Below are positions 17,196-32,020 of a stretch of 63,835 nt of DNA, piece after piece. This DNA is from an uncultured Candidatus Saccharibacteria bacterium. Its GTDB lineage: Bacteria > Patescibacteriota > Minisyncoccia > UBA6257 > 2-01-FULL-56-20. The position numbers and the translations under genes are program-made. The DNA lies in the NCBI GenBank assembly GCA_964374065.1, contig CAYJWW010000001.1, forward strand, positions 1 through 63,835, read 5' to 3'. The notes beneath the pieces were generated by a model that worked only from the letters and a program-made list of their open reading frames with translations, did not search any database and was not told the origin of the DNA. Numbering within the stretch: position 1 is the stretch's first letter; every line of letters begins with the position of its first letter.

Positions 17196-18728
17196 ATGAA
17201 ACAGACCGTAGCGCTTATCATTCTTGACGGCTGGGGCATCGGATCCGCGAGCGAAACGAACCCTATCCACGTAGCGGCTCCCGAACGTTTCAAATGGCTC
17301 GAGGATAATTTCCCCGTCACGAGCCTTCAGGCGTCCGGCATCAACGTGGGGCTCCCATGGGGAGAAGTCGGAAATAGCGAGGTGGGGCACCTATCGCTCG
17401 GCGCGGGCAAGATCATATACCAGTATTTCCCCAAGATCTCTATGGCGATCAAGGACGGCACTTTCTTTTCAAATGCAGTGCTGAAACGGGCGTTCGCGCA
17501 TGCGAAGGAGCGGGGCACGGGGGTGAACTTTGTGGGCCTTCTCTCCAATGCAAACGTACACGCCTCGTTCGATCATCTTCAGGCGCTTCTCCGCATGGCG
17601 GAGCAAGAGGGCGTTCCGAACGTAAAGCTCCACCTGTTCGCGGACGGGAAAGATAGCGGTCCGAAAAGCATCGATAGGCTGCTCCTCGCGCTTCCCAAGG
17701 AAAAACTTGCGAGTCTTATCGGCAGGTACTATGCAATGAACCGGAACGAACAGTGGTCGCTCACCGCCCAAACATACGGATGCCTCGTCGGAACAAGCGG
17801 GCAAGCGGTAGACGATCCGTCTCCCGCGATCGAGGCGATCTTCCGCCGCGGCATGTCCGAGGAGTTCTTGCCGCCTCTCCGCATCGGGCAAGGGAAACAG
17901 ATAGCCGCGGGCGATGCGGTATTATTCTTCAACTACCGCGAAGACAGCATGCGGCAGATCGCCGCCGCGTTCATCAAAAAGGATTTCAGCGAGTTCCCGC
18001 GCCAAAAGCCGGACGACCTTTTCATCGCCACAATGACGCCGTACAAAAGGGACTTCGACGCGCCTGCCGCGTTCATGCCAGACATGGCGGAGATGCCGCT
18101 CGCGGAAGTGCTTTCCAAAAATAATAAGTCGCAGCTGCGAATAGCGGAAACGTACAAGTACGCGCACGTCACGTATTTTTTCAACGGCTACCGCGAGGAA
18201 CCCTACGCCGGCGAATACCGAGTGCTTATTCCGTCGCTTAATCTCGCACACCCGGAGGAGCGACCGGAGCTCATGGCCCCCGCCATTACTGACCGGCTGA
18301 TCGAAACGATTCGAGGGCAGGCGTTTGATTTCGTACTCGCCAACTACTCGAATCCTGACACTATCGCGCATACCGGCAATTACCAGTCGTGCCTCCAAAC
18401 GGTCAAAGTGATCGACCGAGAGATCGGAAGAGTTGTGGATGCGGCGCTTGCCACGTCCGCTATCGTGCTTATTACCTCCGATCATGGAAATATTGAACAG
18501 GTGCTGAACGCGACGACCGGACAGACGGAAACCCAACACGATCCGAATCCTGTTCCGTTCCATCTAGTCGGGAAGAGATTCGAGAAAAGGAAGTTTTGGA
18601 ACTCGCAGAATTTTCGAACCGACCCGCTTGGCCTCCTCTCCGACGTTGCGCCGACTGTGCTCGAACTGATGCGCATACCGCAGCCAAAAGAGATGACCGG
18701 CAAAAGCTTGCTCCGGAACCTGCTATAA
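17196..18728 (+). CDS. gpmI: 2,3-bisphosphoglycerate-independent phosphoglycerate mutase
   Basis: ILDGWG, NSEVGHLSLGAG, QLRIAETYKYAHVTYFFNG and TSDHGN motifs. Confidence 0.95.
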   Translation: MKQTVALIILDGWGIGSASETNPIHVAAPERFKWLEDNFPVTSLQASGINVGLPWGEVGNSEVGHLSLGAGKIIYQYFPKISMAIKDGTFFSNAVLKRAFAHAKERGTGVNFVGLLSNANVHASFDHLQALLRMAEQEGVPNVKLHLFADGKDSGPKSIDRLLLALPKEKLASLIGRYYAMNRNEQWSLTAQTYGCLVGTSGQAVDDPSPAIEAIFRRGMSEEFLPPLRIGQGKQIAAGDAVLFFNYREDSMRQIAAAFIKKDFSEFPRQKPDDLFIATMTPYKRDFDAPAAFMPDMAEMPLAEVLSKNNKSQLRIAETYKYAHVTYFFNGYREEPYAGEYRVLIPSLNLAHPEERPELMAPAITDRLIETIRGQAFDFVLANYSNPDTIAHTGNYQSCLQTVKVIDREIGRVVDAALATSAIVLITSDHGNIEQVLNATTGQTETQHDPNPVPFHLVGKRFEKRKFWNSQNFRTDPLGLLSDVAPTVLELMRIPQPKEMTGKSLLRNLL

Positions 18729-25023: not shown

Positions 25024-25248
25024 CTAGCCGTCGCCGTATTTGCGCTCCGTACCGCACACTTCGCAGCGGTAGCAGTTGCGCCGAGCCGTCGGCTCGTGCG
25101 GCGTATGCTTCAGTTCAAACGGGACCTTAAGGAGAGGCTTGTCCTTGTGCGGCGAAATCCTCCCATTCCGCATCTCTCCCGCCGCTTGGTCGAGCGAACT
25201 GAGCCAGGGGTTGCAGCTCCCTTCGCAGACGAGAAGGTAGGTGGTCAT
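25024..25248 (-). CDS. small Cys-containing protein (74 aa), unknown function
   Basis: Has CEGSC near the N-terminus and CYRCEVC near the C-terminus. 4-nt overlap with the upstream 393-aa gene, followed by a strong terminator. Confidence 0.5.
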   Translation of the reverse strand: MTTYLLVCEGSCNPWLSSLDQAAGEMRNGRISPHKDKPLLKVPFELKHTPHEPTARRNCYRCEVCGTERKYGDG

Positions 25249-26426
25249 CCGCGCCTCCTTCGCACGCGGGGGTCTCCCTCGAAGGGATCGCAGGGTGACG
25301 GTTTTTCTTTCGGCGCGAGCGGGACGCGCATCTTGAAGAGCGTCCCCTTTCGCCGCGCGAAATAAACGAGCGAACGCTCCCCCACGCTTGCCCGCACGGA
25401 GAGGATCTCATCGAAGGTCGGACCCGGCGCGCCGTCCATCACGAGGCACTGGTCGTACGGTTCCACTTCTTCGATCTCCCAGCGCTTGCGGAGCCGCTCG
25501 CCGAAGCTCGCCCGCTTCGGATGAGCGTTCGGCTGCCATGGCTCCCGGAAACAGTCGTTGAACTCGTCGGGGTCGAACGAATCTGCCGAGCCGATCTTCA
25601 TATACACCTGCCAGCAGCCCGGCGCGTGTTCGAACACGGGGTCTCCCTTTTGAGGATTTCCGGTCAGCGTGATGAGATCTCGTTTGGGCTTTCGCTTCCC
25701 CGGATGGATCACGACGCAGGAAAGCGCGTGCGCTTCTTCGCCGAAGTCGACATAGTAGCCGCGGGAATTGATCGCCCAGAGCGGCGTCCCCCACGGCACG
25801 CCCCAGAGCGCGTAGAGCGCGTGCTTGTCGCACGGCCCGTACCGCACCACGTCCGTGATGCGATCAAGGTGCTCGTGGTCCGTATATCGGCCCACTCCGA
25901 ATGCGGCGACACAGAGGAGCAGTTCGTTGCGCCGCTCACCATCCTGCCAGAACGCGGCGAAGTTGCTCCGGCCCGAACCTGTCGCGACGTTACCGCAGGC
26001 CCGTTGATCAGGGACATGATACATATGGCCATGCCCCAACTCGACGAAGAGCCGGAACTTGTCCACCTCGTCCTTGGAGTCCTTGAGGTGCCGGAAAACC
26101 GCCCAGGGCCGATCGACCGCATAGTCCGTCCAGATGCCCGCCCCTTCGAGGTAGAGCATCGGATCGTAGGACTTTTTGTTGATCATGGTCCCGAACCGCA
26201 CCTGCTGGTGCCGGACAGGCGGCGTAAGCACCGCGGAGGCGACCGGCTCTTTGCCGCTCACGCGCCGGATGACCTTCCCCCAGTCAAACTCGCCGCGCCG
26301 AAGCGCGAGCGCCACAGCGTCCTCAAGCGTGACGTACCGGTCTCCTTCGTTATGCCCTTCCTTGGGACACACCAGCAGCCCATCCTGGACCACCGGATGC
26401 CCCAGGCGGCAGAAGATATTGGCCAC
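25245..26426 (-). CDS. hypothetical protein (393 aa), no family recognised
   Basis: Long ORF with balanced composition, starting behind AAAGGAGGAC (SD). His/Cys-rich patches: CRLGH...CPKEGH, GHGHMYH, TDHEHLD. Confidence 0.7.
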   Translation of the reverse strand: MANIFCRLGHPVVQDGLLVCPKEGHNEGDRYVTLEDAVALALRRGEFDWGKVIRRVSGKEPVASAVLTPPVRHQQVRFGTMINKKSYDPMLYLEGAGIWTDYAVDRPWAVFRHLKDSKDEVDKFRLFVELGHGHMYHVPDQRACGNVATGSGRSNFAAFWQDGERRNELLLCVAAFGVGRYTDHEHLDRITDVVRYGPCDKHALYALWGVPWGTPLWAINSRGYYVDFGEEAHALSCVVIHPGKRKPKRDLITLTGNPQKGDPVFEHAPGCWQVYMKIGSADSFDPDEFNDCFREPWQPNAHPKRASFGERLRKRWEIEEVEPYDQCLVMDGAPGPTFDEILSVRASVGERSLVYFARRKGTLFKMRVPLAPKEKPSPCDPFEGDPRVRRRRG

Positions 26427-26729: not shown

Positions 26730-29700
26730 CTATCCTCGGCGCAGCTCGAGAGAAATCTCTTTGCCGTCTATTGAGATCGGTCCCCCGGTAATATCTGCGT
26801 TCTCGCGCACGCCGCTCAAATACGTTTTCACCCTGTTAATGCTCCCCATCGCCCGCCGCAGATCTTCGTCCGCGGTGCGGTACAAAAGCGCGGTTTTTTC
26901 TCCAACCTTGAATCCCGCGCGCTTTCGGGCTTCCTGGATCGCCCGCTCGAGGCCACGGACGAGTCCTTCCATCTGGAGTTCTGCCGTGAGCTCGGTGTTC
27001 AATACAACCTCTTCTTTGAGGTTCGGGTCAAACGCTATTTCTTTTACATTCAACTCTTGCTTCAGGACTTCAAGCAGCGCATCCGCCCCTTTCAATTCCT
27101 GATTCTTGACTCTTAACTCTGGCAACGGCTGCCGCACAGGAACGTTCGCTTGCTTGCGAAACGCGAGACCTAGGCTCGCGATATTTCGCACCACATCCAT
27201 TTGCTTCAAGAGCATGTGATCCTCGGTCGAAAGTTCCTTCTTGCCCGGCCATGATTCCAAGTGCACCGAGGGGAAGCCCCCGATAAAATCCAGCTTTCTA
27301 AAGATCGCTTCGCTTATGTAAGGCATGAAAGGCGCGGCGGTCAAAGACGCTACGAGAAGGCAATGGCGGAGCGTAAGAAAGAATTCTTGATCCTTCCTCC
27401 CCCTGCTCCGTCTCACATACCACGTGGAGAGATCGTCGATGTATTCCGCGATCGCGCGCGTGGCTTTTACCGTATCATAGTCGTCCAAGTGTTCCGTCAC
27501 GGCGTTCACGAGTTCCTGTGTCTTCGCGAGCGCCCACCGGTCGAGAACTGAATCGAACGTTTTTCCTTCTTCCCACCGGGTTTTAGGATCAAAGCCCGCC
27601 TCGGAAGCATACGTATCGTAGTAATTAAAGACGTTCCAGAGGATGAGGATAACCTTGCGGTACGTGTTCTGCAGCTCCCGTTCGCTGAAGTTGAGGTTGT
27701 CCGCCTGCATGACGACGGAATTCATGAGATAGAATCGCAAGGCATCCACGCCGTATTTCTCGATTACCGCCCATGGATCGGGATAATTGGCTTTTGACTT
27801 TGACATCTTGGAGCCGTCTTCGGCGAGGATCGTTCCCGTCGTTACCACATTCTCAAACGGGGCCTTCCTGAAAAGCGTGTGTCCCACGACGTGCATCACA
27901 TAGAACCATGCGCGCGTCTGTGCGATGTATTCCGCGACGAACTGCCCGGGATAGCGGGATTCGAACGTCTTTTTCTGGTCGAATGGGTAGTGGTATTCGG
28001 CGAAGGGCATGGATCCCGCTTCGACCCAAGAATCGAAAATTTCCTTGATGCGGCGGGCTTTCCCTCCGCACGCGGGGCACTTCAATACCGCCTCGTCTAT
28101 CGCCGGACGATGCAAGTCGGGCACCGCAACATCCATCTCGAACGGAACCGCGAACTCCGGATACGGCCGCTCGGAGCCGAAGTGCTGCTGCAGGACCCAT
28201 AACGGATCGCCGTGGCTCACGACAAGGATCCGCTTGCCGGAATGCTTCCGGTTTATCTCGTCCGCGAAATCGAGCACTCGCGTCCGGATATCGCTCCAGC
28301 TTTCTCCTCCCTCCGGAGCTTCGTCCCAGCGACGCGAGGCCGGAATTGCGCTTCCAAACTCTTCCATGGGCCGGCCGGTAAAGATACCGACATTATATTC
28401 GCGGATTCGCGTATCGCATTCCACCGGTATGCCAAGCGTACTGCCGACGATCTCCGCGGTGCGCCTTGTGCGCTTGAAATCGGATGCGTAAATGAGATCG
28501 ACGCCCCCCATCTCGCGCAGCGTTTCGGCAAGGCGTTGCGCACGCACCGCTCCCTCTTCGGTCAGGTCGTACGGATCGTTTACATTCGAACTGTTGATCC
28601 TCCGCACATTGTGCTCCGCTTCTCCGTGGCGGCTAAAGATGAAAGTGTTCCGCGAAACGCCCAACTCCTTAATGCTTCCTACCACCATGGGCGGACAATT
28701 TTCCGTTTCACATTTCCACACCGGGATAGGATTGCCCCAATAGCGGTTCCGCGAGATGTTCCAATCGGGCGCTTGCTCCACGCTCTTCTCGTAACGACCG
28801 TGTTTCAGATGTCCCGGGAACCAGTTGGTCTCTTTCGCGTTCGACCGGATCAAGTCCCGCTTGATCTTTTGGATATTGATAAACCACGCGGGGATCGCGT
28901 TGTAGAAAAGCATATTGCCGCACCGCCAGCAGTGCGGGTACGAGTGGGTAAATTGCGTTTTCGCAAAGAGCAACCCGCGCTTCTCGAGATCTTCGATTAC
29001 GACTTTGTCCGCATCTTTGAAATACATCCCGCGCAGCAATTCCGGCGCCTTATCATTGAACGTCCCCTTCTCGTCCAAGAGCGGCACGACCGGCAAGCCG
29101 ACTTTCTGGCCCAGCTCGTAATCTTCCTCCCCGTAGACGACTGCCGTGTGCACAATGCCGGCGCCCTCTTCGGTGGAGACGAAATCCGCAAGATACACTT
29201 TGAAAGCGGCTTGCCCTTCGGAGCCTTGGCGAAGAAGGGGAACATCAAAGAGCGGTTCGTAGACAAGACCGACGAGGTCCTCGCCCCTCACTTTTTGACC
29301 AGTGTGCCCGAGTTCCTTCCCAAGCGGAGAATCCTCGGCGACAATCAGGTAATCGTCTCCTTTCTTTGTTATCGCATACGAAATATCCTTGCCCACCGCA
29401 AGCGCCACATTCCCGGGCAGCGTCCACGGCGTTGTCGTCCACGCAAGCAGGTATATTGGCGCATCACTTGGAAGTTGTAATTTGGAACTTACTTGTGATT
29501 TGTTGTTTGTAATTTGGAATTTTACCGTCACCGCTTCTTCGGTCACATCCTGATAGCTGTTGTCCATCGCCACCTCGAAGTTCGAGACCGGCGTCTCGCA
29601 GCGCGGACAATAGAGGAGCACGCGCCGTCCCTCGTATACGAGCCCTTTCTTCCAAAACTCCTTGAACGCCCACCAGACCGACTCCATATAGTCGCGGTCC

Positions 29701-30140
29701 ATGGTTTTGTAGGAGTTGTCGAATTCGGTCCAGCGCGCGATGCGGCGCACCATCTTCTTCCACTCGTCCGCGAACTCGAGCACCTTCGCGCGGCAAACTG
29801 CGTTGAATTTCGCGATGCCGATCTCTTCTATCTGCTTCTTGCCGGAGATGCCGAGGTGCCGCTCCACAACCTCCTCGATGGGAAGTCCGTGGCAATCCCA
29901 TCCCCAGCGCCTGCGCACGAAGCGCCCGCGCATCGTCTGATAGCGCGGAATCACGTCCTTAATGGTGGAAGCCAGAATATGGCCATAGTGGGGAAGTCCG
30001 GTGGCAAAGGGCGGTCCGTCATAGAAAGTGAACGGCTCCCCGTCCTTTGTTTTCTCCAGCGTTTTCTCGAAGATTTTCTTATCTTCCCAAAACTTCAAAG
30101 TTTCTTCTTCGAGTTTTGCGGGATTGAATGGCTCGGGCAT
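26730..30140 (-). CDS. ileS: isoleucine--tRNA ligase (type 2-like) with a nested histidine-phosphatase domain
   Basis: HIGH-type PHYGH, CP1 editing signature AWTTTPWTLPGN, KMSKS, and Zn-binding Cys pairs. 1136 aa. Confidence 0.95.
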   Translation of the reverse strand: MPEPFNPAKLEEETLKFWEDKKIFEKTLEKTKDGEPFTFYDGPPFATGLPHYGHILASTIKDVIPRYQTMRGRFVRRRWGWDCHGLPIEEVVERHLGISGKKQIEEIGIAKFNAVCRAKVLEFADEWKKMVRRIARWTEFDNSYKTMDRDYMESVWWAFKEFWKKGLVYEGRRVLLYCPRCETPVSNFEVAMDNSYQDVTEEAVTVKFQITNNKSQVSSKLQLPSDAPIYLLAWTTTPWTLPGNVALAVGKDISYAITKKGDDYLIVAEDSPLGKELGHTGQKVRGEDLVGLVYEPLFDVPLLRQGSEGQAAFKVYLADFVSTEEGAGIVHTAVVYGEEDYELGQKVGLPVVPLLDEKGTFNDKAPELLRGMYFKDADKVVIEDLEKRGLLFAKTQFTHSYPHCWRCGNMLFYNAIPAWFINIQKIKRDLIRSNAKETNWFPGHLKHGRYEKSVEQAPDWNISRNRYWGNPIPVWKCETENCPPMVVGSIKELGVSRNTFIFSRHGEAEHNVRRINSSNVNDPYDLTEEGAVRAQRLAETLREMGGVDLIYASDFKRTRRTAEIVGSTLGIPVECDTRIREYNVGIFTGRPMEEFGSAIPASRRWDEAPEGGESWSDIRTRVLDFADEINRKHSGKRILVVSHGDPLWVLQQHFGSERPYPEFAVPFEMDVAVPDLHRPAIDEAVLKCPACGGKARRIKEIFDSWVEAGSMPFAEYHYPFDQKKTFESRYPGQFVAEYIAQTRAWFYVMHVVGHTLFRKAPFENVVTTGTILAEDGSKMSKSKANYPDPWAVIEKYGVDALRFYLMNSVVMQADNLNFSERELQNTYRKVILILWNVFNYYDTYASEAGFDPKTRWEEGKTFDSVLDRWALAKTQELVNAVTEHLDDYDTVKATRAIAEYIDDLSTWYVRRSRGRKDQEFFLTLRHCLLVASLTAAPFMPYISEAIFRKLDFIGGFPSVHLESWPGKKELSTEDHMLLKQMDVVRNIASLGLAFRKQANVPVRQPLPELRVKNQELKGADALLEVLKQELNVKEIAFDPNLKEEVVLNTELTAELQMEGLVRGLERAIQEARKRAGFKVGEKTALLYRTADEDLRRAMGSINRVKTYLSGVRENADITGGPISIDGKEISLELRRG
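28122..28652 (-). other. histidine phosphatase (PGAM-like, His_Phos_1) domain inserted in IleS (aa about 497-673)
   Basis: All family motifs appear in order: SRHGEAEHN, LTEEGAVRAQRLA, IYASDFKRTRRTAEIV, IREYNVGIFTGRPMEEF, PEGGESWSDIRTRV, ILVVSHGDPL. Confidence 0.85.
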
Positions 30141-30322: not shown

Positions 30323-32020
30323 CTATACCCTCTCCGGCGCCTCGATCCCCAGCAGATTGATCCCTCGCCGCAACGCCTCCGCCGTCTTTCGAACCAGCAT
30401 AAGGCGCGCGCGCCTGCGTCCCGCATGCTCATCCTTCAAAATCGGTTCCGCTTCGTAGAAGCGGTTTGCCGCGTTCGCGAGCGAGAACAAATAGCCCGCA
30501 AGCCGGCTCGGGGCGAGTTCCCGCACGGCGTCGCCGAGCGCATCCGGAAATTCCACGAGCTCCCGGATGAGCGCGAGCTCGGCCTTTTGGGTTAGGGAAG
30601 AGAAATCGGCATCTCCGTTCCCGTCCGCTTTTTTGAGCACGCGCTTCAGACGCGCGTGCGTGTACTGTAGATATGGCCCGGAGTCGCCCTGGACCGCGAG
30701 CGATTTCTCGAAATCGAATACGATGTCCTGCCCGGGACGCTGTTTTAAGATCGAATACTTGATGGCGCCGATCGCGATTTGGTCGAGCAATGCATCGTCG
30801 GCCGCTTCACTCTCGTCATTTTTTACCCGCTCCCGAAGCTTTAATTTCGTTTGCTCGATCAGCTCGTCCGCGGTTATCACCTCTCCGGTGCGCGAGGACA
30901 TCTTCCCCGAGGGAAGCCGCAGCATGCCGTGAGGGATATGGCGCGTCGCTTTGGCCACCTCCGGCATCACACGCTCCATCACCTTGAGAAGTACTTTGAA
31001 ATATTCAGCGATTTCATTGCCGGTCACGATGAGCGACGCATCCGGATGAAAGAGATCGAACTTCCGCCGGTTGAGCCCCAGCTCTTTCGCTTCATATGTC
31101 GGGAGTCCCTGCGAATTTATGAATACGCGCGTGTGCAATCCGTATGGTTCTCCGCGGAATACGATGGCGCCTTCGCTTTCTTCGAACATCTCCGAGTGCT
31201 CGCGCACAATGGCCGCGCCGCGCGGCCCCTCTTCGCTTTCGAAGAAATAGTGGTCGAACTTCGTGCCGAGGCGCGCATAGATCGCTTCGAAGTATTCCAA
31301 GCTCCACGCCCTCCCTTTGTCGTACAGTGCGTTGATCTCCGTGTCGCGTTTCGCATAGATCGCCCGGTTCACCGATTCAACCTCATGCTTCAACCCCTCG
31401 TCCCCGCTGCGATACGCGTTCGCCCCCGCGGCATACGCCGCGCCAAGATATTGCACGAGTTCTTTGTGCGTGCCCTGAGCGGGGAGCGGGCCGGCTTTCC
31501 CTCCCCGTATCGCCCAGACGGCCATCGCCACATGGAGCCCGATATCGCCCTGCCAGTTGACGCGGAGCACCTTCGCCCCCGCCGCTTCATGAAGCCGCGC
31601 GATCGCCTCGCCGATCGCGTTCGACATCAAATGCCCGATATGGAACAGCTTGAACGGGTTCGGGTCGGTGTACTCGACCATAACCGTCTTGCCGTTAAGC
31701 GCGGCGGCTTTCCCGAAATCGGGAGTTGTCGCGATCCCTTCGAATTCCTTTTGAAGTTTTGCTTCCGTCACCCATATATTCACGAATCCCGGCGGGACCG
31801 TCTCAATGTTCTGGAAAAGTCCGGTGGTGTTCGAGCGTAATTTTTTTGCGATCGATTCTGCGATCGCCATAGGGTCCTCTTTCCGTTCCTTCGCAAGCTT
31901 CAACGCGACACTCGTCGCATAGTGCCCAAATCCTTCCCGCGGCGGGACAGCGAGGTCGGCCGAGCCGGTGTCGGCAGCTTCTTCTATTGAAGATACGATT
32001 TCATCTTTGAGCATTGCCAC
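30323..32020 (-). CDS. argS: arginine--tRNA ligase
   Basis: NPFKLFHIGHL (HIGH), an MSSR(TG) KMSKS-equivalent, and a C-terminal DALR anticodon-binding region. Confidence 0.93.
   Translation of the reverse strand: MAMLKDEIVSSIEEAADTGSADLAVPPREGFGHYATSVALKLAKERKEDPMAIAESIAKKLRSNTTGLFQNIETVPPGFVNIWVTEAKLQKEFEGIATTPDFGKAAALNGKTVMVEYTDPNPFKLFHIGHLMSNAIGEAIARLHEAAGAKVLRVNWQGDIGLHVAMAVWAIRGGKAGPLPAQGTHKELVQYLGAAYAAGANAYRSGDEGLKHEVESVNRAIYAKRDTEINALYDKGRAWSLEYFEAIYARLGTKFDHYFFESEEGPRGAAIVREHSEMFEESEGAIVFRGEPYGLHTRVFINSQGLPTYEAKELGLNRRKFDLFHPDASLIVTGNEIAEYFKVLLKVMERVMPEVAKATRHIPHGMLRLPSGKMSSRTGEVITADELIEQTKLKLRERVKNDESEAADDALLDQIAIGAIKYSILKQRPGQDIVFDFEKSLAVQGDSGPYLQYTHARLKRVLKKADGNGDADFSSLTQKAELALIRELVEFPDALGDAVRELAPSRLAGYLFSLANAANRFYEAEPILKDEHAGRRRARLMLVRKTAEALRRGINLLGIEAPERV

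Follow-up and report, generated by a model that had tools for sequence, protein, structure and literature searches.

Why should the only isoleucyl-tRNA synthetase (IleRS) of a strongly reduced bacterial genome carry a second enzyme in the middle of its own chain? The question is raised by a stretch of DNA of 63,835 nucleotides from an uncultured Candidatus Saccharibacteria bacterium (contig CAYJWW010000001.1 of assembly GCA_964374065.1, forward strand, positions 1 to 63,835), which is referred to below as the window and provides all coordinates unless a genome or locus coordinate is named. On its minus (-) strand, positions 26730..30140 hold ileS, a type-2 IleRS gene with a nested histidine phosphatase, which forms a single continuous open reading frame (ORF) with a translation of 1136 amino acids (aa); all features within the gene share this strand. 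The new analysis demonstrates that PhoE-like phosphatases have been joined repeatedly to aminoacyl-tRNA synthetases across Patescibacteria, and it favors, with a probability of roughly one half, a model in which the insert acts as an accessory phosphomonoesterase with a functional link to aminoacylation.

The first step toward an answer is the position of the domain within its host. A phmmer alignment to the Thermus thermophilus (Tth) enzyme (1ILE) matches residues 6-494 to Tth 9-477 and residues 675-998 to Tth 489-819, and the approximately 180 residues in between stand in for 11 residues of Thermus IleRS. Specifically, the insert comprises aa 495-674 (180 residues; 28119..28658), that is, the histidine phosphatase domain and two short structured linkers. 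It is bordered by the two halves of the zinc knuckle in connective peptide 3 (CP3), a subdomain that carries a zinc-binding motif in Thermus IleRS (PMC7191050). The first Cys pair, Cys477/Cys482 (28695..28712) in WKCETENC, aligns to Tth C461/C464, and its Cys477 is invariant in 66 full-length homologues (44-68% identical); the second pair, Cys688/Cys691 (28068..28079) in the segment DLHRPAIDE...CPACGG, aligns to Tth C502/C504 and is invariant in the same homologues. The chain leaves the synthetase just past Cys477/Cys482, forms the phosphatase and returns ahead of Cys688/Cys691, and the alignment to 1ILE thereby bears out the insertion point between the two knuckle halves of a type-2 enzyme that a first-pass annotation, made from the DNA letters alone, had proposed. 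In an AF2 model built with the 66 homologues (mean pLDDT 88.2, pTM 0.82), pLDDT reaches 85-97 over the phosphatase domain and 79-93 in both linkers. Synthetase and phosphatase are produced at a ratio of 1:1 in one chain, which, together with the editing domain in connective peptide 1 (CP1), contains three intact catalytic sets.

The body that surrounds the insert is that of a type-2 isoleucyl-tRNA synthetase. Besides the phosphatase, Pfam identifies tRNA-synt_1 (1.4e-124), Anticodon_1 (aa 867-1007) and DUF5915 (aa 1020-1098), and the protein passes the ileS equivalog TIGR00392 (800 bits against a cut-off of 621.4) while remaining under the cut-offs of the NCBIfam valS, leuS and metG models. 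Its structural matches are the type-2/eukaryote-like enzymes 1ILE (1e-201), 6LDK, 8WND and 8C8U (1e-201 to 1e-192), with the type-1 structures 8C9E and 1FFY reaching only about 1e-79 to 1e-77; a Foldseek search with the model ranks P. megaterium IleRS2 first and also returns yeast IleRS, at TM scores of 0.79-0.85 (target-normalised). The N-terminal part, aa 1-494 (28659..30140; aligned to Tth IleRS 9-477), spans the first Rossmann half, the connective peptide (CP) core, the CP1 editing domain, CP2 and the first half of CP3, and presents the HIGH signature as HYGH at aa 51-54 (29979..29990), aligned to HVGH of the Thermus enzyme and kept with little or no change in the 66 homologues. The C-terminal part, aa 675-1136 (26733..28118; placed by the Tth alignment of 675-998 and by Pfam), contains the second Rossmann half, the KMSKS motif, the anticodon-binding domain and the type-2 C-terminal domain (DUF5915). 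Within KMSKS (aa 778-782, 27795..27809), K778, S780, K781 and S782 are invariant among the 66 homologues and M779 is conserved in at least 90% of them. The CP1 editing motifs TTTPWT (aa 235-240) and GAGIVH (aa 326-331) are intact, and two structures of the Tth editing domain on its own, 1WK8 and 1UE0, match CP1 at 1e-33 to 1e-28. Since this gene is the sole IleRS match of the whole genome (790 kb in 33 contigs, 99.3% complete), we infer that the protein charges tRNA(Ile) with isoleucine. The ValRS (923 aa) and LeuRS (947 aa) of the same genome carry no phosphatase insert.

The second step concerns the catalytic equipment of the inserted domain. His_Phos_1 (PF00300) matches aa 501-655 (28176..28640) with an E-value of 2.9e-35 and 122.1 bits against a cut-off of 21.7, covering profile positions 2-159 of 194, so that approximately the last 35 profile positions are not represented; a whole-genome scan with the same profile gives 5.7e-37 at the same coordinates. 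When 28122-28652 (aa 497-673), which had been described at first pass as a complete phosphatase domain nested in IleRS, is scanned alone, it scores 8.9e-37, and the motifs listed at that stage are all found in the translation, complete and in order: RHG at 504-506, LTEEG, RTRRT at 557-561, REYNVG at 580-585, GGES at 611-614 and SHGD at 642-645. The catalytic set R504, H505, G506, N511, R557, E581 and H643 can be matched to PhoE and PspA. Arg504, the nucleophile His505 and Gly506 form the RHG motif (28623..28631), in which R504 and H505 are invariant both in the 66 homologues and in all 34 IleRS-nested copies examined. Arg557 (28470..28472), which would bind phosphate and aligns to the Arg of SGRALETAE in PhoE, is likewise invariant. 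Glu581, the putative general acid/base in REYNVG (28398..28400), is conserved in at least 90% of the homologues and is E or D in all 61 domains of a residue survey (59 domains extracted from relatives plus two PDB sequences), and His643, the second catalytic His in SHGD (28212..28214), is invariant in the homologues and present in 59 of the 61 domains. The invariant positions among the homologues amount to R504, H505, S553, R557, D576, E613, R621 and H643, with N511 joining Glu581 at 90% conservation or more, and each of the 34 IleRS-nested copies, drawn from at least nine families, has the complete R-H...R...E/D...H set. Because these catalytic residues are conserved, the nested domain is predicted to be a working phosphomonoesterase that proceeds via phospho-His505, assisted by Arg504, Arg557, His643 and Glu581. 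The first-pass annotation had also considered that the segment might prove to be an ordinary lineage-wide IleRS insertion devoid of the catalytic His and Arg; the insert is indeed lineage-wide, but these residues are retained.

Which phosphatase this is can be narrowed by its relatives and by the other enzymes of the cell. The closest solved structures are PhoE (1H2E, 5.7e-16) and PspA (4IJ5, 3.7e-15), followed by GpgP and CobC, and the insert reaches none of the NCBIfam equivalog cut-offs: PRK07238 (RNase H/acid phosphatase) scores 90.5 against 326, CobC 77.8 against 162.9, PspA 76.4 against 350, GpmB 63.6 against 261 and SixA 31.2 against 74.5. Judged by these scores, the insert is a PhoE-like lineage of branch-1 histidine phosphatases without a named equivalog. 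Two housekeeping assignments were considered and rejected. The first would have made the insert the phosphoglycerate mutase of the cell; the window, however, encodes an iPGM of 510 aa (17196-18728, PF06415 at 1.3e-53), the dPGM models stay far under their cut-offs (dPGM_arch 86.9 against 225, pgm_1 34 against 81.7), and the motifs SRHGEAEHN, REYNVG and SHGDPL of the insert differ from RHGESEWN, ERHYG and HGNSLRAL of dPGM; enolase, too, went undetected. The second would have made it a replacement pyrophosphatase (PPase). No soluble PPase was found in the genome, and a membrane H+-pyrophosphatase is present (genome coordinates C1:107893-109854, 5.6e-270). With iPGM and H+-PPase both encoded, the insert is a stand-in for neither enzyme.

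Two further observations belong to this enzymatic context. Lower glycolysis appears incomplete, with an iPGM and no enolase match detected in the genome, a pattern that is often reported for the candidate phyla radiation (CPR). Furthermore, the genome contains a second, free His_Phos_1 gene (contig 27; L002 755-1363) in which VHG replaces RHG, and directly after it lies a Nudix-like ORF with a degenerate Nudix box (L002 1407-1835) and weak NCBIfam matches of about 2e-6. A conserved pair of Nudix and histidine phosphatase (HP) genes was entertained as a functional clue and dropped, since the adjacency was not seen beside the HP gene in 16 other loci and the one Nudix-HP fusion has dPGM-type motifs.

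The third step is comparative. The survey sample was an even set of 400 other genomes of the phylum, or 401 with the present one, whose taxa are given as codes (families f16, f20, f56, f81, f90, f94 and f133; genomes G..; loci L..). A His_Phos_1 gene of any kind occurs in 278 of the 401 genomes and a close relative of the insert (E<=1e-10) in 156. With the source genome set aside, no fewer than 56 of the 400 contain a nested copy, counted as a match within an open frame of 900-1550 aa; this number is a lower bound. In the class to which the source genome belongs, 19 of 23 genomes have a nested copy (with the host verified as IleRS in six and inferred from frame length in the others), three (f16) have a free copy adjacent to argS, and one has none.

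Across many families, all inserts of this position, termed site 1, occupy exactly one IleRS loop, which measures about 10-15 residues in the insert-free IleRS of f16. Other arrangements are nonetheless met. In family f90, site 1 is empty and the phosphatase lies near position 856, just ahead of the anticodon-binding domain; in f20 there are two tandem copies that belong to different HP clades, and one representative protein has four copies. ValRS hosts the phosphatase in nine genomes, and in the seven that were aligned it occupies the homologous loop after ISRQIWWGHRIPVWY. Even a class II synthetase is among the hosts: the AlaRS of f56 contains a complete His_Phos_1 in its catalytic domain, between EIWNNVFMEY and DTGMGLER, and the AlaRS-nested copies (L053-L055; G051, G142, G100) retain RH(G/A), R, E and SHGD. 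In G122 and G076, frames of comparable length suggest that AlaRS is arranged alike.

A search of 1.84 billion proteins points in the same direction. Of the 150 closest representatives, about 60% exceed 300 aa in length, and the 55 longest of these include 51 with tRNA-synt_1, one with ArgRS domains and one with a ValRS C-terminal arm; no other host family appeared among those 55. The ArgRS-domain protein is a single representative that combines ArgRS domains with His_Phos_1, and it is listed apart from the nested hosts IleRS, ValRS and AlaRS. Non-synthetase fusions of His_Phos_1 were also met, namely with a D-2-hydroxyacid dehydrogenase (2-Hacid_dh, four genomes), with Nudix and with a VTT/DedA membrane domain (L056-L059, L060, L061), but these carry the dPGM-type motifs RH[AG]ESEWN, ERDYG and HGNS in place of the PhoE-like SHGD and can be read as a different branch of the histidine phosphatase family. 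As an aside, the fusion to the dehydrogenase suggests an enzyme pair of glycerate/3-phosphoglycerate metabolism or of the serine pathway.

How a phosphatase came to reside in ileS is suggested by the neighborhood of the gene. Upstream of ileS, at a distance of 182 nt and in the same orientation, lies argS (565 aa; 30323..32020, minus strand; Pfam Arg_tRNA_synt_N, tRNA-synt_1d and DALR_1), and the two genes adjoin in 13 of the 16 relatives checked. In f16 (L015-L017), the order is argS, a free phosphatase gene, one or two other genes and the insert-free ileS, and in f81 and f133 a free phosphatase stands beside an ileS that also holds a nested copy. A tree of the HP domain (178 columns) unites the insert with its f94 counterpart in a 99/99 clade, which falls within a 95/85 clade of site-1 inserts; the free genes linked to argS form a weakly supported neighbor of this clade, and the nested copy of f133 has the free copies of f81 as its sister group (100/100). 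According to the well-supported branches of this tree, the domain must have switched between free and nested at least three times independently. The simplest history, and probably the correct one, is repeated capture of a phosphatase gene that was already resident in the synthetase locus.

The synthetase itself appears to have had an eventful past. Stripped of the insert, the IleRS body is 64-67% identical to four IleRS sequences from f94, a family of another class, and 37-45% identical to IleRS of its own class, and it clades with those four sequences with 100% support, apart from the own-class clade. ArgRS shows the opposite: it is 44% identical to its counterpart in a genome of the same class and about 30% identical to those of f94. 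Family f94 holds two ileS lineages, even inside one genus (L004-L009 compared). These comparisons, in which taxa are known by code and ArgRS is a fast-evolving reference, suggest that a foreign ileS, insert included, took the place of the resident gene downstream of argS by lateral transfer.

More generally, ileS seems to be laterally exchanged among Patescibacteria. Several other observations around the locus stand apart from this history. In f16, the ORF between the free phosphatase and ileS resembles a di-iron alternative oxidase (L016 7309-8055, L017 8430-9278) and was named by eye from the motifs EVIARIPYQSWEV, ESHAF and DEIIHRN. Directly downstream of ileS in the window, a 393-aa ORF (25245-26426, minus strand) lies in a block of 62-65% GC, against approximately 48-60% in the flanks; it has no Pfam match, overlaps with a 302-aa ORF on the other strand, and may be foreign or lineage-specific. 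Promoter and terminator scans of the argS-ileS region returned sites no more frequent than in shuffled sequence.

What, then, might the phosphatase do for its host? Four lines of evidence underlie the favored reading of a function tied to aminoacylation, namely that hosts of the close relatives are synthetases only and belong to both classes, that insertion occurred independently, that the active site is conserved, and that other enzymes cover the housekeeping roles; from these we infer that the association of phosphatase and synthetase was selected and not accidental. In this model, the domain would remove a phosphate from something that all host synthetases handle. What hosts of both classes have in common is that they handle ATP/AMP and the terminal 3' adenosine of tRNA, which makes removal of a phosphate from an adenosine ribose the most likely concrete mechanism. 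The target would be either a 2'/3'-phosphate that blocks the CCA end of tRNA or a phosphorylated adenine nucleotide acting as a competitor at the active site, and in both cases the outcome would be a substrate that is kept chargeable.

Several alternatives have to be weighed against this model. The least probable, with a practically negligible chance, is that the architecture is an artifact or a selfish element, i.e., a chimeric join, a frameshifted gene pair or an intein-like spliced element. The best 120 matches among 5.8 billion proteins all combine PF00300 with synthetase families in the same domain order, and they represent independent clusters. Their assemblies come from NCBI, JGI, ENA and Logan, with contigs of up to 827 kb, and their source names are Patescibacteria group, Doudnabacteria, Liptonbacteria, Saccharibacteria and Paceibacterota, which bears out the first-pass assumption of a CPR genome. 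The unbroken frame and a domain order common to more than 120 independent clusters rule out chimeric assembly and frameshift, and the nested copies in the sampled genomes and the conserved junction sequences speak against them as well; with the confident AF2 model added to frame and clusters, the first-pass view of a domain within a domain, and not of a terminal fusion or assembly join, stands. An intein or mobile element is ruled out by the junctions, since the insert reads GVSRN at its start and VAVPD at its end, followed by LHRP, with neither a Cys/Ser start nor a His-Asn end, and by the absence of Hint, LAGLIDADG and HNH families from IleRS in the Pfam scan. A catalytically silent module, in which the fold was kept to stabilize or extend CP3 or to sense a ligand without turnover, would fit the loss of the second His in some ValRS copies and the degenerate zinc Cys that flank the insert in several relatives (L008, L009, L011), where the domain might replace the knuckle structurally. 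It is very improbable, however, since a purely structural role would not require the catalytic set, and R, H, N, R, E and H are invariant or nearly so across homologues as divergent as 44-68% identity, with none of the 34 IleRS copies examined lacking the full set. Improbable, too, is a phosphatase directed at protein, acting on the synthetase itself, e.g., on a Ser/Thr near the KMSKS loop, or on a partner protein, which would reverse an inhibitory phosphorylation of the HipA-family kind. HipA-family kinases inhibit GltX and TrpS by phosphorylation, and among the branch-1 histidine phosphatases, SixA, PGAM5 and Sts-1 act on proteins; a weak SixA match in NCBIfam (1.7e-7) and a covalent 1:1 tether with confidently modeled linkers would suit such action in cis. 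Against this, the closest sequence relatives are of the PhoE/PspA type and not SixA or PGAM5, and no kinase partner turned up at the locus, although no search aimed at kinases was made.

A quite possible account, and the most serious competitor of the favored reading, is that the phosphatase is an autonomous passenger, an ordinary small-molecule phosphomonoesterase that sits in a permissive loop and has no mechanistic link to aminoacylation. A captured neighbor gene would then have been kept for its own activity and for guaranteed co-expression in a streamlined genome. Most of what weighs against a role in aminoacylation speaks for this account. The characterized close relatives PhoE, PspA, GpgP and CobC are metabolite phosphatases that act on small molecules, and we know of no histidine phosphatase that acts on a nucleic-acid end. 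His_Phos_1 is absent from 123 of the 401 genomes (31%), and most surveyed genomes have an insert-free IleRS, from which it follows that aminoacylation does not need the phosphatase. Unrelated domains are nested in the synthetases of relatives as well, a GNAT domain in IleRS (G147, L036 aa 666-764) and in ValRS (G116, L062 aa 531-625) and an IS200-type Y1 transposase-like domain within the IleRS editing domain (G314, L039 aa 299-375), which points to permissive loops. The second catalytic His is lost in two of the nine ValRS-nested copies examined, two to four tandem copies look more like a dosage effect than like a precisely placed active site, and the deep nodes of the HP tree are poorly supported. 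The conserved flanks WGxPIPxW and D.WF.S could, in addition, let the insert move between ileS and valS by recombination, and a nested domain is hard to delete cleanly, which makes its persistence alone weak evidence of a role in the host. On the other side, the hosts examined for PhoE-like fusions are all synthetases, mostly tRNA-synt_1 proteins, with one ArgRS-domain protein and AlaRS besides, and highly expressed non-synthetase genes were never met as hosts. The class II AlaRS shares no flanks with IleRS, and recombination between paralogues therefore cannot explain it as a host. At least three independent nesting events, the strict retention of the catalytic residues in all IleRS copies examined, and the presence of a second, free HP paralogue and an iPGM in the same genome argue further against a mere passenger.

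Returning to the favored reading of a phosphatase tied to aminoacylation, its most specific version is at the same time more doubtful than the reading as a whole. In this version, the nested phosphatase would be a third catalytic center, found in both synthetase classes, that inspects the adenosine ribose and strips a 2'/3'-phosphate from the CCA end. Nucleases could produce the blocking phosphate, as could pyrophosphorylation of the toxSAS type once a Nudix step has followed, and repair and charging would then take place on one enzyme. If true, this would be the first member of the histidine phosphatase superfamily that is directed at nucleic acid. No sequence relationship between the insert and known tRNA-end healing enzymes was seen, and the one long RSH gene of the genome speaks neither for nor against a link to alarmones. 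The location beside the aminoacylation site and the nucleotide, tRNA-end or alarmone-type substrates put forward at first pass keep the rank of suggestions.

The broader meaning of these findings lies in the fact that the accepted catalysis of aminoacyl-tRNA synthetases, which rank with the most thoroughly studied enzymes, consists of synthesis and editing, while here an apparently active phosphatase seems to be under selection inside the sole IleRS of a minimal genome. Two explanations present themselves: an unrecognized step of phosphate removal that is linked to charging, for which tRNA-end repair, removal of an inhibitory nucleotide and defense against toxins are candidates, or a rule for the packaging of enzymes in ultra-reduced genomes. 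In practical terms, the CP3 loop represents a natural, tolerated insertion site that could be useful for synthetase engineering.

How does this enzyme compare with known systems? The suggestion at first pass that no IleRS with such an insert had been described has to be given up, as Kantor et al. 2013 (mBio, PMC3812714) mention in one sentence that the IleRS of SR1 (Absconditabacteria) is interrupted by 'phosphoglycerate mutase' domains; beyond this sentence, our literature search found no functional or evolutionary study of the architecture. Both are CPR IleRS enzymes interrupted by His_Phos_1, but the SR1 protein has two His_Phos_1 domains and a Nudix domain, whereas the present one has a single copy and no Nudix. 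Toward the toxSAS systems there is an analogy only. The sources (bioRxiv 10.1101/2021.04.30.441581; PMC11559606) describe that the toxins FaRel2 and CapRel pyrophosphorylate the 3' end of tRNA and block aminoacylation, and that small alarmone hydrolases reverse this modification. By analogy, a blocking phosphate on the CCA end would be a conceivable substrate for a synthetase-borne phosphatase, although the known reversing enzymes are HD-domain hydrolases, unlike the histidine phosphatase found here.

With the free-standing metabolite phosphatases PhoE (Geobacillus stearothermophilus, 1H2E/1EBB), PspA (4IJ5), GpgP (4PZ9) and CobC (6E4B), the insert shares the fold family, the catalytic residues and a length of about 160-200 aa, with E-values of 5.7e-16 to 8e-7 against their structures, and it differs from them in being nested in a synthetase. 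With the type-2 (eukaryote/archaea-like) IleRS structures of Thermus (1ILE), Priestia megaterium (8C8U/8C8V) and yeast and Candida (8WND, 6LDK), the host shares HIGH, KMSKS, CP1, CP2, CP3 and the type-2 C-terminal domain, and with Thermus IleRS in particular the zinc-binding Cys pairs in the CP core and in CP3; unlike the latter, it holds an enzyme domain of 180 residues in the CP3 knuckle, and a catalytic domain at that place is not known from any solved IleRS. The nearest parallels in design are the NCBIfam 'ileS_w_GNAT' IleRS and the CP1 domain, in which a class Ia synthetase likewise carries an additional enzymatic domain in a connective-peptide loop. The CP1 editing domain hydrolyzes mischarged tRNA, as has been demonstrated, whereas the nested phosphatase has an unrelated fold and a predicted phosphomonoesterase chemistry, and its role is proposed from sequence. 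Taken together, the architecture has been visible in databases, noted once in print and left unexplained, and it belongs with the synthetases that bear extra domains; to this picture, the present analysis adds a class II AlaRS host, the restriction to synthetase hosts among the close representatives, the exclusion of phosphoglycerate mutase and pyrophosphatase roles, and the apparent lateral replacement of ileS together with its insert.

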